Assembly (NCBI GenBank): GCA_963695435.1
Contig: OY968788.1
Coordinates: 349,456 to 413,455, forward strand
Length of the DNA: 64,000 bases
Direction of reading: 5' to 3'
From: an uncultured bacterium
GTDB taxonomy: Bacteria; Patescibacteriota; Kazan-3B-28
The stretch's first letter is position 1, and every line of letters starts with the position of its first letter. The notes below the pieces were generated by a model. The model ran no database searches. It was not told the DNA's origin and worked only from the letters and a program-made list of their open reading frames with translations. Below, piece after piece: positions 57,500 through 64,000 of this stretch. The position numbers were made by a program, and so were the translations under genes.

Positions 57500-58882
57500 T
57501 TAGTAGCTTCCCTTGCGAGCGAAAACAGCTTTGAAGGTCAGGAACATAATCTTGAAATCGAGCCAGATAGACCAGTGCTCCAGATAATAAACATCCATCT
57601 GAACATAGTCGTCAAACCCCGTGTCGCTTCTGCCAGAAACTTGCCACAATCCTGTCACACCGGGCTTGATGAGTAATCGCCGCTTCGCGGCGTCGCCGTA
57701 CTGCACAACTTCATTGGGAAGAGCAGGACGCGGTCCTACCACACTCATATTGCCGACAAAAACATTGAACAACTGGGGCAATTCATCCAACGAAGTTTTG
57801 CGGATGAATTTTCCTACTTTGGTAATGCGCGGGTCATCTTTCATTTTGAACATCGGGCCACTCGCTTCATTTTTCTCTGCGCGTAATTTTTCCAAAAGTT
57901 CTTCCGCCTTCGCTCCTCCTAACCCCGGACTCAATTCGCTATACATCGAACGGAATTTGTAAAAAGTAAATAATTTACCAAGCTCCCCAACTCTTTTTTG
58001 GGAATAAATTATCGGACCTTTAGAATCGAGTTTGATAGCGATTGCTATCACTAGCATCACAGGAGATAAAACAATAATCCCTAAAATGCTCAAAACAATA
58101 TCAATAAATCTTTTGACGATTCTCCCCCACCCCGAAAGTGATGTTGGGGCAATTTCAATCAGCGGATATCCTGCAATTGTATCGATAGTAATATGAGAGG
58201 TATAAAGACTGGTCAAACTCGGAACATATTGAAGAGTGATTCCGCGGTCTTCGCAGAAACGAACCAGTTTCAACATTTTTTCTTTATCCAGTTCTGCGCC
58301 CAAGATTATCCGATTAAGTTGGGTTTGGGCGAACAGATTTTCTTCATCAAAAAATCCGCTGATGCCAAGCAGTTTTTTGCCCGGCCGGCGGGATTTGATA
58401 TAGTTTCTCAAAACCACCGCAATATTACCCTCGGCAATCAGCCAGACTCCCTCCACACCTGTTCCGTAATACTGCAACCATTGTTTGATGAAGTTGACGA
58501 ATGCTCTGCCCAACGGAACCATCAAAATACTTAGTCCCCAAAAATAAACAACAATTAGACGAGAGAAGAAAGAAGTTTTTACCAAGAATAATCCGATAAT
58601 AAACAGCGCCAAAGCGACCGAAGTTGCGGTGATAACTTTCCCAAATAACTCACCCTGCTTGAGCCCACGGAATTTATACAATCCAAAAATAAAAAATACC
58701 GCCAGCCACAGAAGTGATAGTTCGGCGGTATATTTCGCGTATTCAGGCAAAGGTTGGATGTAAATAACATCCGTAGCCGTCCAACCAATGCGGATGTAAT
58801 AGGCAAATAAGAAAGCGCCCCAGACCATCAAAAAGTCCACGGGCAAAAGAAGTATCGTAAATATCTGATTAAATCTTTTCAT
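57500..58882 (-). CDS. polyprenyl-phosphate sugar phosphotransferase (bacterial sugar transferase, WbaP/CpsE-like); start moved to internal Met to clear tRNA
   Basis: C-terminal KFRSM ... DELPQLFNV ... GNMSVVGPRP; track ORF start would overlap tRNA-Val by 33 nt. Confidence 0.8.
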   Translation of the reverse strand: MKRFNQIFTILLLPVDFLMVWGAFLFAYYIRIGWTATDVIYIQPLPEYAKYTAELSLLWLAVFFIFGLYKFRGLKQGELFGKVITATSVALALFIIGLFLVKTSFFSRLIVVYFWGLSILMVPLGRAFVNFIKQWLQYYGTGVEGVWLIAEGNIAVVLRNYIKSRRPGKKLLGISGFFDEENLFAQTQLNRIILGAELDKEKMLKLVRFCEDRGITLQYVPSLTSLYTSHITIDTIAGYPLIEIAPTSLSGWGRIVKRFIDIVLSILGIIVLSPVMLVIAIAIKLDSKGPIIYSQKRVGELGKLFTFYKFRSMYSELSPGLGGAKAEELLEKLRAEKNEASGPMFKMKDDPRITKVGKFIRKTSLDELPQLFNVFVGNMSVVGPRPALPNEVVQYGDAAKRRLLIKPGVTGLWQVSGRSDTGFDDYVQMDVYYLEHWSIWLDFKIMFLTFKAVFARKGSY

Positions 58883-58915
58883 ATCTGAATCATAGCCCCC
58901 AAGCGGCTTATTATA

Positions 58916-58991
58916 TGGTGGGCGGTAGAGGATTCGAACCTCTGACATTCACAACGTCAATGTGACGCTCTACCAACTGAGCTAACCGCCC
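58916..58991 (-). tRNA. tRNA-Val (anticodon GAC), CCA encoded
   Basis: loop TTGACGT, T-loop TTCGAAT. Confidence 0.85.
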
Positions 58992-60331: not shown

Positions 60332-60817
60332 CTACCAGATGTGTTCGCCGACATACAGAGATACATAGCCCTCAACATCATGATAATCAACTAAATCCTC
60401 TATCCAGTCCTCGCATTTATATCGACTAATCCAGACACTAAGCTGATGTTGTTTGAAACCCAGCATCTTGATGTGACGACGAAACCTATCACGCAACTTG
60501 CGCTCCCCTTCGGGGATATCGAATACCAAAATTCTTATTTTGCCGTCAACGGCCAGTTCTTTTTTAATAATTGGTAGCATTCTAACTGCACCAAGTTGTG
60601 TCAGTCGATAATATTTTCCTTTTGGTTCTAATTCTTGCTCGTAAATCAGTCTATCAACAATTTTCTGAACCTGACGAGGATCCAATAATCGCATCCCCTT
60701 ATATCTAGTGGTCAGAGGGATAGTGAAAAATTCAAACAGACCCGCACCGGTGTGTTTGATAGCACGAATAATAAGACGGCGGACTATATTACGTTGAGTA
60801 TTTTTTGTTTTTGGCAT
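60332..60817 (-). CDS. PaaX-type protein: N-terminal winged-HTH-like region + C-terminal Cas2-like domain
   Basis: KIRILVFDIPEGERKLRDRFRRHIKMLGFKQHQLSVWI aligns with Cas2 core (VVVYDV..RRRR..L..YG.RVQYSVFE). Confidence 0.6.
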   Translation of the reverse strand: MPKTKNTQRNIVRRLIIRAIKHTGAGLFEFFTIPLTTRYKGMRLLDPRQVQKIVDRLIYEQELEPKGKYYRLTQLGAVRMLPIIKKELAVDGKIRILVFDIPEGERKLRDRFRRHIKMLGFKQHQLSVWISRYKCEDWIEDLVDYHDVEGYVSLYVGEHIW

Positions 60818-60876: not shown

Positions 60877-62997
60877 CTAGGCGATGGTGATGGTGATGAT
60901 ACCAGTGTAGTTACCTGTCGCCTTGTTCCATAGACCAGTGAGATCAATTGTGGGCGAAAAATAGAATCCCCCCTTACCATAACCCGCAGAAGCTGCGTAG
61001 GCTGTTCTGGAAGCGTCTAGAGTGGCACCGGTTTGGCCAGTCATATTTGTTGTGACAGAGGTAAAACCGACATTAAGAACACCTGTCGTGGATGTCCATG
61101 TGATATTAGCATGGTCGATAGTGTTTCCTCCATTAGTCATATCAGTACCAGAAACTGATACGGTATAAGCGGAAGCTGTAGAGCGCTTGTCCCAAAAACC
61201 AATCTTCTCGCCGGCAGCAAAGACATACTGCTTGGTATTCGTGCCTACAGTGACACTTCCATAGCTCACGCTGGCAGGTGCAGTGCTTACTTCCAAATCA
61301 TAAGCGGCGGCGGTAGTGAGGGTAGGATAATTATTGCCCACAACAGGAGATACTACACCAGCAGGAGTATCTGTCCCGCCACTATTCTCGATGTAGTAGA
61401 GGCGGAAAAAATATTGAGTGTTGGCGGTGGCACCATTATTTTGGATGGTAAATTCAAATTCTGTGGCGGTGCTGGCGGCAGGATCAAAGGTACTGGAGCT
61501 AGTGCTACCGCCAGTTTCGTTATGAGTACCGTTGGCGGCAGTAGTGGTAAGAAGACGAGTAGTTATCGAAGTGTCGTCAGTGTCAACGCCGTTGTAGTAG
61601 CGCCAAATAACCATTTGACCAACCCCGCCGACATCAGTCGCCGATGAAAAACTATTAGAAGTATCGTATTCCAAATGAAATTTTACATCCGTGCCGGCCG
61701 TCGCCCCAGTTTCCGTTACACCAAAGCGTAATTTTAAAGCATTCCCGTCATAGACTATTCGGGTGCTGGCTGGCGCGTGGCTTTCGGTTCCGATAGTGTC
61801 TCCTGCTAAAATATCAGTCCCTAAGGTGTCGGCAGGGTCAGTCGTTTGTTCGGCATCACACCAGCGCCATTCGGTTGATTTGGGAGTATATACAGCCAAT
61901 TTCTTCGCTACCACCACATCAATATACGCAGGAGTATTGCTCTCGGAGGAGAAGTTGCCGGAGATGGTATGAGTGTGAGCGGCAGCTGTGGCGCCAGGAG
62001 GAGTGGTGCTGGTGGTGACACCCGTTGTGGCACTGGCGCCAAGAGAGACAACACTAAGGGCATGGGTATGAGTGGCGGAGCCTTGTCCGGTCTGGTAGCC
62101 AGTCTGGGCCTCCATAAAAACTTGGTAGAATGCTTCGCCTCCGCCATTGCTAATGATATCCCAGCTGGAGCTGTCAATATTCGGGTCACCATTGAACATA
62201 GCTATCATGCCGGCGGGGATAGCGGTGCCGCCGCTGTTGGTAACAGAGCCCAAGACCACTTCTGTATGGAGAGGGGTATCGTCGTTACTGATAGGAGAAG
62301 TGCCGGTATAGCTGTGGGTATGGGCGCTGGAGGGGCGCGGATCGGTCCCGGAAGCTACAGCAACGGTGGCGCTGGGGCCGCTGGTGACAATGCTTAGATT
62401 AGCATGGGAGTGGGTGTTGGTGCTACTAAAGCCACCAGAAGTAGAATTAAACCTGATCATATAGCCATTTTGACCAGCATAACCGCTAAATCCCGTTCCC
62501 ACGGCGGCATCAAATATAGCGATGGCGAATTGGGGCAGGGTGGTGGGAATACCGCTATCGCAAGAAATGGGGATGAGATCGCGATAAGCAGGCGAAGGAG
62601 TTGCAGTATTCATAGTGAAAGTGGTAAGAGTCGAGTGGGTGTGGATGGTGTTGGAGACAGTAACTCCCGTTCTTGTACGGTTGGCGCCCGTGGAAGACGC
62701 AACCACAGCTACGGTGCCTTGGGTGTGAGTATGAGTGGGGGTGGTGGCGGAGCCAAGGGCCGCATTCCCCCGCGGGAAGTAGCCGGCATAGGTAGCGCCT
62801 GTGCCAACACCCGCAGTCCAGCCAGTAGGGACACTTCCGCCCAGACCGGTATCCCAGAGCAAAATCATTTTCTCGCCGGTAGCGCGAGCTTTTGGGACAT
62901 TACCTGTTTCTAACGGGAACAAATGGGAAAAGCCGGCCACTACCGAGACCGTTATGATAATGACTGTAATACGCTGGAAAAGTTTTGTCCGCTTCAT
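60877..62997 (-). CDS. secreted/anchored 706-aa Thr/Gly/Ser-rich protein with six periodic (S/T/A)-H-(T/S)-H motifs; possible fiber-like surface protein
   Basis: N-terminal signal anchor; PTHTHTQG, IHTHST, NTHSHAN, SAHTHSY, SATHTHAL, AAHTHTIS. Confidence 0.5.
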   Translation of the reverse strand: MKRTKLFQRITVIIITVSVVAGFSHLFPLETGNVPKARATGEKMILLWDTGLGGSVPTGWTAGVGTGATYAGYFPRGNAALGSATTPTHTHTQGTVAVVASSTGANRTRTGVTVSNTIHTHSTLTTFTMNTATPSPAYRDLIPISCDSGIPTTLPQFAIAIFDAAVGTGFSGYAGQNGYMIRFNSTSGGFSSTNTHSHANLSIVTSGPSATVAVASGTDPRPSSAHTHSYTGTSPISNDDTPLHTEVVLGSVTNSGGTAIPAGMIAMFNGDPNIDSSSWDIISNGGGEAFYQVFMEAQTGYQTGQGSATHTHALSVVSLGASATTGVTTSTTPPGATAAAHTHTISGNFSSESNTPAYIDVVVAKKLAVYTPKSTEWRWCDAEQTTDPADTLGTDILAGDTIGTESHAPASTRIVYDGNALKLRFGVTETGATAGTDVKFHLEYDTSNSFSSATDVGGVGQMVIWRYYNGVDTDDTSITTRLLTTTAANGTHNETGGSTSSSTFDPAASTATEFEFTIQNNGATANTQYFFRLYYIENSGGTDTPAGVVSPVVGNNYPTLTTAAAYDLEVSTAPASVSYGSVTVGTNTKQYVFAAGEKIGFWDKRSTASAYTVSVSGTDMTNGGNTIDHANITWTSTTGVLNVGFTSVTTNMTGQTGATLDASRTAYAASAGYGKGGFYFSPTIDLTGLWNKATGNYTGIITITIA

Positions 62998-63983
62998 TTC
63001 TTCTTCCGTTTGCTACTTGTTTTGCTCGTACTCAACCTCGCGGATAGGCGTGGCTGTCCGCTGGTAGTTATGCGTGGATGATACAAAGAAGATTTAAACG
63101 ATAGTAGATAGCTAACGAGAGATGGCATAGTTTCGGTTTCGGATTTACGGTATAGCTCATCAGATGTCAGTGGACGAATTGGAATCATTAATTTGTCTCC
63201 GACATTTAGCGCATAGGGCCAGACCAGCCGGTTGAATCTAACGATTAGTTGGGGCAAAGCGCCTGTTTTTTCGGAAATATGAATAATTGTTTCACCTTTT
63301 GCGATAGTATAAACCTCAACTTTGGTGCGGTATTTATTTCTGTCTTTCCAGAAAGCCAATAAACGGTAGACGAGCCATCCAATGACCAAAAGAATGGCTA
63401 GGAGTGCGAAGTAAATTCCTCCTATCCAGAAACCGAAAGAATATTTAAAAGTCATGTCTGGCAGAGTTTTCTTGCTTCCATCCGACAAGATTTCATCAAT
63501 CGACCATGTGTGTAAAACCAGATTTACCCGATAATAGCCCATCAGCGGAGCGTGTTTTGCCCACGTCTTGTCTATAGTTATCGTACTATTAGGCAGAAAA
63601 GCTCCATTTGAGTTTTCTACTTGGTGATAAGTTCCAAACAATCCTTTTAGGTTAATATCTAGCGCCGGTTCGATATTTATATTGCTTTCGTTGCGGGCTT
63701 GAATATGAAAAATTAATTTCCCATCCTTAATTTCATGAGTGACTTTTTGGAAAGTTAGTTTGCGAACAACCTTCCCCGGCACCGTCACATAAATTCGGGC
63801 ACCTATACGGATTCTTAGCCCGACTCCGTTGGGTGAGTCGGCTGTTTTTTCATAAATTACAATTGCCCCGCTGTGTTGGCCCGGACTGGCATTGTCGGGA
63901 ACTGTGAGATTGAAATTAATGTTAGCAGATTTGCCAGCACCGACTTGAATAGTATTAGTAGAAAGCTTAACCCAATTACCCAA
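62994..63983 (-). CDS. hypothetical protein: beta-rich Ig-like N-region, TM helix, C-terminal LysM domain; N-terminus possibly beyond window (frame open to 64000)
   Basis: TM FGFWIGGIYFALLAILLVIGWLVY; LysM YTIAKGETIIHISEKTGALPQLIVRFNRLVWPYALNVGDKLMIP. Confidence 0.5.
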   Translation of the reverse strand: MGNWVKLSTNTIQVGAGKSANINFNLTVPDNASPGQHSGAIVIYEKTADSPNGVGLRIRIGARIYVTVPGKVVRKLTFQKVTHEIKDGKLIFHIQARNESNINIEPALDINLKGLFGTYHQVENSNGAFLPNSTITIDKTWAKHAPLMGYYRVNLVLHTWSIDEILSDGSKKTLPDMTFKYSFGFWIGGIYFALLAILLVIGWLVYRLLAFWKDRNKYRTKVEVYTIAKGETIIHISEKTGALPQLIVRFNRLVWPYALNVGDKLMIPIRPLTSDELYRKSETETMPSLVSYLLSFKSSLYHPRITTSGQPRLSARLSTSKTSSKRKKK

Positions 63984-64000
63984 ATCTTGGTTCTGGGCGG

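Follow-up and report, generated by a model that had tools for sequence, protein, structure and literature searches.

A predicted large WxL-type surface protein of a Kazan-type bacterium with a triplicated head related to phage fiber tips

What could six histidine-X-histidine (HxH) motifs be doing in a threonine- and glycine-rich protein of a presumed episymbiont? The question is raised by a gene in a 64,000-nucleotide stretch of contig OY968788.1 (GenBank assembly GCA_963695435.1, positions 349,456 to 413,455), which comes from an uncultured Patescibacteriota bacterium of the Kazan-3B-28 lineage, within the candidate phyla radiation (CPR), and is called the window below. According to the open reading frame (ORF) list, the coding sequence (CDS; 60877..62997, minus strand) starts with ATG and encodes 706 amino acids (aa) followed by a TAG stop; the parts of the gene and its two neighbors described below lie on the same strand, in window coordinates. 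An earlier note on this DNA had proposed a metal-stabilized fiber or adhesin. We found that the six motifs belong to three homologous tandem units whose profiles lead to phage fiber tips, and we assign to the CDS the probable role of a large WxL-type surface protein with a triplicated phage-fiber-tip head. With a probability of about 0.55, we read it as an adhesin anchored to the wall, with a head in which phage receptor-binding tips form a metal-clamped pseudo-trimer within one chain.

Three tandem units and their histidine motifs

As checked by translation, the HxH motifs start at residues 89, 119, 196, 226, 310, and 341, and all six histidine strings quoted in the earlier note were located there. 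When the protein was shuffled with its composition kept (n = 20,000), the mean number of HxH motifs was only 0.43 and the maximum was 5; the six motifs of the real protein are far beyond chance. Their spacing, previously given as 30 to 45 residues, is actually 30, 77, 30, 84, and 31 residues, and it is uneven because residues 42 to 366 are made of three tandem units that each hold one pair of motifs. Unit 1 (aa 42-147, 62557..62874), which is recognized by hhalign between the units, by its match to a phage-type unit profile, and by the strand pattern of an AlphaFold2 (AF2) model, consists of a collar-like core (KMILLWD..VPTGWT..FPRG), the HxH at 89-91, a variable loop, the HxH at 119-121, and the strand PAYRDLIPI. 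Unit 2 (aa 148-257, 62227..62556) holds the motifs at 196-198 (HSH) and 226-228, and unit 3 (aa 258-366, 61900..62226) holds those at 310-312 and 341-343 and ends with the closing strand PAYIDVVVAKK.

With profiles built across homologs, the three units, of about 108 aa each, proved to be mutually homologous (hhalign, 98-99%, E values of 1e-13 to 1e-19). Their consensus begins with a hydrophobic strand (KMILLWD, FAIAIFD, and GMIAMFN in the three units, respectively) and continues with a P-x-G-W/F turn, an R/K-G turn, G-G-x-x-T-H-x-H, about 27 variable residues, H-T-H, and a P-x-Y-x-x-V-V strand. The pairwise identity among the units is just 20-25%, and no repeat is left at the DNA level within the gene, which together indicate that the triplication is old. 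A recent DNA duplication as the source of the units was ruled out by the lack of a DNA-level repeat.

An exhaustive HMMER search collected 398 cluster representatives of the three-unit family at E <= 1e-3, and the module counts given here were drawn from 163 of them. A hidden Markov model (HMM) of the three-unit block recognized 138 complete blocks, or modules, in 126 proteins of 325 to 5,808 aa; about 12 proteins have two complete blocks and hence 12 HxH motifs. Partial blocks occurred solely at residue 1 of truncated proteins, and no intact protein with one, two, or four units was present among the 163 sequences. The source labels of the block-bearing proteins include Patescibacteria and Parcubacteria, and two giants are labeled Woesearchaeota and 'archaeon'. 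A locus search with a narrow alignment returned close Patescibacteria/Kazan relatives alone. The giants P0037 (5,808 aa), P0159 (2,901 aa), and P0188 (5,507 aa), which carry the module, are labeled Woesearchaeota or 'archaeon' (DPANN-type) as well as Patescibacteria, all of these being metagenome-bin labels, and are annotated as DUF2341 or LamG-like only.

The histidines are retained to different degrees in the two motifs of a unit. At the second HxH, each position keeps histidine in 130 to 138 of the 138 modules, namely, in 136 and 130 for unit 1 (H119-T-H121, 62635..62643), 137 and 137 for unit 2 (H226-T-H228, 62314..62322), and 138 and 137 for unit 3 (H341-T-H343, 61969..61977); these three motifs are the presumed core metal site B. 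At the first HxH, the counts are 112 to 128, with 112 and 120 for unit 1 (H89-T-H91, 62725..62733), 123 and 128 for unit 2 (H196-S-H198, 62404..62412), and 125 and 120 for unit 3 (H310-T-H312, 62062..62070), which we presume to form an outer metal site A. Retention of the motifs in homologs, on which the earlier note had made its proposal depend, is therefore borne out, most clearly by the second HxH. Moreover, the first motifs tend to vanish together: 80 modules have all three intact, 45 have two, 4 have one, and 9 have none, against about 12 modules with one and about 1 with none predicted for independent loss. The nine modules without any first HxH are 28-47% identical to each other, and several of them are closer to motif-bearing modules than to the others of the nine. 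This joint loss fits one cooperative site made by all three units.

The distance from one HxH to the next is 31 +/- 2 residues in each unit of all modules. No correlation of this spacing was found among the units of one module (intraclass correlation coefficient of 0.05), because the spacing is about 31 everywhere and has no variance. By contrast with this fixed frame, the residues between the motifs are the most variable of the module, with a column entropy of 3.05-3.11 bits versus 1.8-2.3 bits elsewhere, and orthologs share 11-50% identity in the inter-HxH loops versus 35-87% in the rest of the units. In each unit, the variable stretch is bracketed by the two HxH motifs, and AF2 places a strand after every motif.

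The AF2 model of residues 40 to 368, calculated from a diverse alignment of 40 sequences, reached a mean predicted local distance difference test (pLDDT) score of 83.2 and a predicted template modeling (pTM) score of 0.80. It shows the same six-strand succession in each unit, and the inter-HxH loops are the only three segments of low confidence. For a chain of 329 residues with three repeats, a pTM of 0.80 suggests to us that the units are confidently placed relative to each other and are not independent beads, so the head (aa 42-366) is predicted to be one compact body. A repetitive β-helix or a long trimeric fiber with evenly spaced metal sites does not agree with these results, since the units come in blocks of three and AF2 builds a compact body instead; in this respect, the periodic fiber of the earlier note is not supported. 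A Foldseek search of the head model against the PDB gave no match, as expected if the solved relatives are intertwined single subunits. For residues 366 to 706, AF2 predicted rigid, monomeric β-sandwich domains in tandem (pLDDT 92.2, pTM 0.88), and Foldseek of this half against the PDB returned generic tandem immunoglobulin-like or β-sandwich matches alone. The overall picture points to a pseudo-trimeric knob, in which two metal sites are presumed to lie on the axis, with two β-sandwich domains behind it.

Relationship to phage fiber tips

Searches of Pfam, PHROGs, and PDB sequences with the whole protein found no match, none was obtained in 50,697 phage genomes by tblastn with the module, and no Pfam family, including Collar (PF07484), matched the 706-aa protein or its close homologs. 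When single units were used, the matches were all sub-threshold and had one theme: Gp10_C and Phage_fiber in Pfam, tail fiber and tail collar fiber in PHROGs, and the tail fibers 9qgo and 9nxk in the PDB at an E value of about 0.1. Distant three-unit relatives reach 13-16.5 bits with PF07484, below its cutoff of 24. Foldseek against BFVD was more informative, with Pas28 of phage phiAsp2 at an E value of 6e-15 (template modeling score of 0.58) and Pas29 at 3e-14 (0.54), followed by a 'phage tail collar domain containing protein' (probability 0.93) and then an Aeromonas phage tail fiber.

Some metalloenzyme signatures also include HxH, and the motifs could in principle be catalytic metal ligands, for example, those of a metallohydrolase. 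We find this scarcely credible, as no enzyme family was matched, the consistent similarities are all to fiber and collar proteins, and the three equivalent repeats lack conserved acidic partner residues. An enzymatic role was rejected on the genomic context and because enzyme similarity is missing.

In the Actinoplanes phage phiAsp2, pas28 and pas29 come after pas27, a 2.9-kb gene annotated 'tail protein', and the depositors annotated Pas29 as a possible receptor-recognizing protein with HXHY motifs. Each of the two has three units, with four HxH motifs in every unit, and scores 49 bits with the module HMM. A profile search added further proteins of about 420 aa (about 417-434 aa), which have no signal peptide and contain hardly anything besides their three units. 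In these phage-type proteins, units 2 and 3 bear the collar signature G-W-x-x-C-D-G...T-P-D/N-L, and one of the proteins, P0174, is encoded next to genes for a P22-type portal, an SU10-type capsid, and an SU10 adaptor. The loci of the phage three-unit proteins are L002:19272-25990 (phiAsp2 pas28 and pas29, siphovirus) and L006:10001-11512 (podovirus-like contig); a similar protein is encoded at L007:10001-11254, on an unclassified contig that also carries a phage integrase gene.

The phage-type proteins connect the CPR units to fibers of solved structure. The CPR unit profile aligned with the phage-type unit profile over 113 columns (99.3%, E value of 2.5e-20), and the phage-type profile in turn matched 9nxk (Pa223 gp60, 3.6e-6), 6ov6 (JUB59 receptor-binding protein, 2e-5), and 9qgo (Photorhabdus virulence cassette [PVC] fiber, 1.7e-4), each of which was deposited with three chains per entry. 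It also matched the T4 gp12 collar at residues 340-404 (82%, E value of 1e-5), aligning the collar signature IPVGAIMMW...PDMRGLFVRG, and matched T4 gp37 weakly at residues 810-869 (P = 0.0013). The latter segment falls at the beginning of the gp37 receptor-binding tip, which is taken as residues 811 onward (PMC11705849). The CPR unit profile itself hit the same place of the gp12 collar weakly (P = 0.0025), and T4 gp10, the negative control for the unit profile, gave P = 0.55. The gp37-like fiber-tip analogy that the earlier note had drawn for the HxH motifs thus holds in substance, by way of a chain of profiles to gp37, the gp12 collar, and solved fibers. Judged by these profile comparisons, each CPR unit is a small version of one chain's share in a homotrimeric fiber tip.

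The order of elements in a CPR unit, i.e., P-x-G-W collar strand, R/K-G turn, ascending HxH, variable tip, descending HxH, and P-x-Y strand, is the same as that in the homotrimeric phage fiber tips (T4 gp37, SU10, 6OV6, 9NXK, and 9QGO). T4 gp12, an intertwined baseplate homotrimer, aligns with its collar N-terminal part alone. It binds one Zn through an HxH contributed by each of its three chains. The SU10 short tail fiber likewise has exactly two histidine pairs, 36 residues apart compared with about 31 in the CPR units, and these pairs (194/196 and 230/232) may bind Fe2+ and stabilize the fiber, as in T4 and JUB59 (PMC9509320). Unlike the homotrimeric tips, however, the window protein has three diverged units in one chain instead of three identical chains, lacks a shaft, is not part of a virion, appears to be a cellular wall-anchored protein, and belongs to a family that stays sub-threshold for PF07484. 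Pas28, Pas29, and the phage-contig proteins of about 420 aa such as P0174 are the only others that we found with a layout of three units in one chain. They differ from the CPR protein in having four HxH motifs per unit (three at 7-residue steps and one about 30 residues later) instead of two, in lacking a signal peptide and a WxL domain, and in lying among virion genes. In a unit-by-unit orthology test, all 9 of 9 pairs of CPR and phage units were significant with no diagonal, so that a shared triplication and an independent one cannot be told apart. No description of a single-chain pseudo-trimeric fiber tip was found in a full-text literature search of a limited collection.

The solved relatives bring up a different assembly, in which the whole protein would form a parallel homotrimer, with its three collar/needle knobs stacked on each other and six metal sites along the axis of the trimer. 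The relatives of known structure are all homotrimeric, with three chains per entry, and Pa223 gp60 is described as a trimer; in T4 gp37, seven Fe ions are held by HxH motifs on a true threefold axis (PMC11705849), and the earlier note had made a proposal of this kind. We nevertheless consider such a homotrimer unlikely and rate it below the pseudo-trimer because the number of units is fixed (three, or two blocks of three) in 138 modules although stacked repeats should vary, because the AF2 monomer is confidently one body (pTM 0.80), because the remaining protein is a monomer-like string of β-sandwiches (pTM 0.88) and the relatives embed the module in multidomain proteins of 2,000-5,800 aa, and because some phage versions (about 417-434 aa) are three units alone, without a shaft or an attachment domain.

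For the pseudo-trimer that we favor, we propose the following arrangement. The three units of the head (aa 42-366), each homologous to one chain's collar and HxH needle, would pack about a pseudo-threefold axis without leaving their single chain. The second HxH motifs (119/121, 226/228, and 341/343) would supply a His6 metal site and so hold the three hairpins together, and the first HxH motifs (89/91, 196/198, and 310/312) would supply a second, more dispensable clamp. By analogy, the clamped metal would be Fe2+ or Zn2+, and the hypervariable loops between the HxH motifs would form the exposed, ligand-recognizing tip.

The probable anchoring half and its gene cluster

Behind the head lies a middle β-sandwich domain (aa 367-561, 61315..61899), defined by its HMM and by the AF2 model of residues 366-706. 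The HMM found 156 copies in 87 proteins, with up to 13 copies in giant relatives. Three proteins of 2,000-2,500 aa, P0028, P0041, and P0054, have this domain 10-13 times; P0028 also has a galactose-binding-like domain and a near-threshold match to PF07963 (type IV pilin-like N-terminal methylation; E value of 2.3e-4, 21.1 bits versus a cutoff of 21.2).

The last 145 aa (aa 562-706, 60880..61314) are assigned by profile comparisons to a putative, degenerate WxL-like wall-binding domain. This domain is always at the protein end, within 10 residues of the C terminus in 35 of 35 cases. It is homologous to the product of the first gene of the operon (hhalign, 91.8%, E value of 7.5e-7), which has about 204 aa and consists of a signal sequence and a domain of this type alone. 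Among 32 aligned family members, 7 matched WxL (PF13731), with a best E value of 4.3e-8, and this was the sole recurrent family; P0026 matched it at 0.0024.

At the other end, residues 1-41 (62875..62997) were read from the sequence as a signal peptide or signal anchor, in which MKRTK is followed by the hydrophobic segment ITVIIITVSVVAGF and then by an AxA-type site, KARA-TG. Cleavage is predicted at this site, and an AxA-GEKM junction is common to the homologs of the protein. Besides the identical entry P0001, a word-indexed search found 21 further homologs (22 in all), and the named members among them are from candidate division Kazan or Patescibacteria. The composition (T 17%, G 11.2%, A 10.6%, S 9.8%, and V 6.8%) sums to 55% for these five residues, so the earlier description of a 706-aa ORF with an N-terminal hydrophobic signal segment and a T/G/S/A/V-dominated sequence was accurate.

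The start of the CDS overlaps the stop codon of the upstream gene (ATGA) and is preceded by a GGAAG-type ribosome-binding site. This translationally coupled neighbor (62994..64000) is partial at the window end and has 427 aa in the full contig; it is WxLIP (DUF916)-like, with a transmembrane helix and LysM. The partial ORF matched WxLIP_PGBD at an E value of 0.0031 and LysM at 1.3e-5, while its orthologs (L003:8859-9989, L004:8760-9989, and L005:8607-9863) reached 41.9 bits with WxLIP_PGBD against a cutoff of 27.3 and showed a weak WxLIP_HBD, a transmembrane helix, and LysM. In this neighbor, LysM comes after the single predicted transmembrane helix and is followed by a basic tail; given the N-terminal signal sequence, the peptidoglycan-binding LysM would face the cytoplasm, a topology for which we have no explanation. 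Downstream, a 161-aa PaaX-type protein with a central Cas2-like domain (60332..60817; PF20803 PaaX_M, E value of 1.8e-17) is encoded directly behind the cluster in 3 of 3 genomes examined, and it might regulate the operon. The co-oriented LysM membrane protein and the Cas2-like neighbor mentioned in the earlier note correspond to these two genes.

The gene order in the three genomes is small WxL-like protein, PMT_2/TMEM260-like glycosyltransferase, unknown protein of about 500 aa, LysM protein of about 500 aa, WxLIP-LysM protein, homolog of the 706-aa protein, and PaaX-like protein, and their copies of the 706-aa protein are 41-49% identical to that of the window. The wider neighborhood, comprising thrS, PTPS_related, the six-gene cluster, PaaX_M, PRK, and glycosyltransferases, is also kept in three divergent genomes. 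The GT-C glycosyltransferase (L003:3914-5515 and an equivalent gene beyond the window) is a conserved member of the operon and may glycosylate the Thr/Ser-rich proteins of the cluster.

In its minimal form, a WxL cluster is made up of genes for a small WxL protein, for a large one that has its WxL domain at the C terminus, and for a DUF916/WxLIP protein, and more than 91% of the WxL proteins or clusters of this type known so far are in Firmicutes (PMC9772566, PMC10599100). Large WxL proteins (CscC/Lwp) have a signal sequence, β-rich binding domains, and an anchor at the extreme C terminus, as does the window protein, and the domain-only small WxL protein and the DUF916/WxLIP-transmembrane protein of WxL/Csc clusters are both matched in the operon of the 706-aa protein. 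The differences are the CPR host, the degenerate W-x-L, and the extra LysM on the WxLIP partner, and this operon adds a GT-C glycosyltransferase and a second LysM protein to the cluster. No phage-fiber-tip head is described for large WxL proteins in PMC9772566 or PMC10599100. The 706-aa protein would work like both a phage receptor-binding tip and a large WxL adhesin, but it is a strict member of neither class because it has no above-threshold Collar, no virion module, and a degenerate W-x-L.

The module is homologous to the virion proteins Pas28, Pas29, and P0174, and the gene might on this account be a tail-fiber gene of a prophage or phage remnant. Its surroundings make this very improbable: there are no phage genes nearby, three divergent genomes share the chromosomal neighborhood, a signal sequence and a WxL-like anchor are present in the protein, and the window contains runs of ribosomal-protein-sized genes and tRNAs. 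A prophage origin was rejected, since the gene lies in a conserved chromosomal surface operon and no context supports such an origin.

A possible role in attachment

According to our favored reading, this CPR (Kazan-type) bacterium would have a surface complex anchored to its cell wall, with the protein as the 'large WxL-type' subunit. After export by Sec, the C-terminal WxL-like domain would hold the protein on the organism's own wall, and two products of the same operon, the small WxL-like protein and the WxLIP/LysM protein anchored in the membrane, would presumably take part in this. The two rigid β-sandwich domains would serve as a stalk for the distal pseudo-trimeric head, whose likeliest ligand would be a surface structure of the host cell carrying the presumed episymbiont. 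Because the gene sits in a cell-wall-anchoring cluster, the 706-aa protein is, by analogy, a good candidate for the host-attachment device of this organism, and the surface adhesin role suggested in the earlier note becomes reasonable in view of this cell-surface gene cluster.

Several points weigh against this interpretation. The case for an adhesin is one of analogy, with phage receptor-binding proteins on the one hand and large WxL proteins on the other, and the link to solved fibers is transitive, as the protein has no direct sequence match in Pfam, PHROGs, or the PDB and PF07484 is sub-threshold. The convergence of the histidines on an axis is something that we infer rather than see, and phylogenetic non-independence weakens the statistic on co-loss of the first HxH motifs. 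The C-terminal domain of the 706-aa protein itself has no PF13731 match. Its dual W-x-L is degenerate, with ITWTS at W634 and, about 68 residues on, a terminal GIITITIA without Trp, which means that the W-x-L spacing (about 68) is kept and the motif residues are not. In addition, the spacer from the hydrophobic segment to the AxA site is unusually long; the N terminus may stay in the membrane, and the head would then possibly be near the membrane and not distal.

The same fold and clamps might also do another job, such as binding glycans of the organism's own wall or S-layer, scavenging or sequestering metal, or acting as a phage decoy or sensor. The GT-C glycosyltransferase and LysM proteins of the operon make self-glycan binding conceivable, no ligand is known for the head, and His6 sites bind Fe or Zn tightly. 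On the other hand, hypervariable loops between invariant clamps are a pattern of receptor-binding specificity and not of a housekeeping structure, a protein of 706 aa that buries two metals would store metal poorly, and large WxL proteins are described as adhesins that reach away from the wall (PMC9772566). We therefore regard these other functions as rather improbable.

How ultra-small episymbionts identify and bind their hosts is described as largely unknown in a recent Saccharibacteria pilus study (10.1101/2024.11.25.624915). In this respect, the three-unit family is a concrete candidate, as it offers a compact head of about 325 aa with invariant clamps and hypervariable loops and occurs in at least 126 distinct protein clusters, giant surface proteins included. 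The bin labels suggest that the module is common to two ultra-small symbiotic lineages, and no publication tying Patescibacteria to tail collar or tail fiber domains was found in a full-text search of a limited collection. We tentatively suggest, as a possibility that is more doubtful than the role of the single protein, that ultra-small episymbionts (CPR/Patescibacteria and, by database labels, DPANN archaea) adopted the metal-clamped phage tip and fused it into a single-chain pseudo-trimer as an interchangeable host-recognition head. The fused module would be deployed on WxL-anchored proteins and on giant multidomain surface proteins, and its hypervariable tip loops would set host specificity. 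If this is true, a homotrimeric viral fold has been turned into a single-chain pseudo-trimer, which would be relevant to protein evolution and useful for engineering monomeric binders that resemble receptor-binding proteins. The cluster also suggests that WxL/WxLIP-type wall-anchored complexes exist outside Firmicutes, here with degenerate WxL motifs.

Two minor observations concern the rest of the window. A 482-aa ORF (57500..58948, minus strand) is the ortholog of a sugar transferase (Bac_transf in the syntenic loci), and its first 33 nucleotides overlap a tRNA-Val gene (58916..58991, minus strand); because its orthologs have 445-464 aa, translation probably starts at an internal Met, residue 23. 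Positions 12000-47500 contain long runs of co-oriented ORFs, with ORFs of 1,263 and 1,146 aa at 36-43 kb, and nine tRNA genes are present in the window; this region looks like core chromosomal clusters and not like a mobile element.

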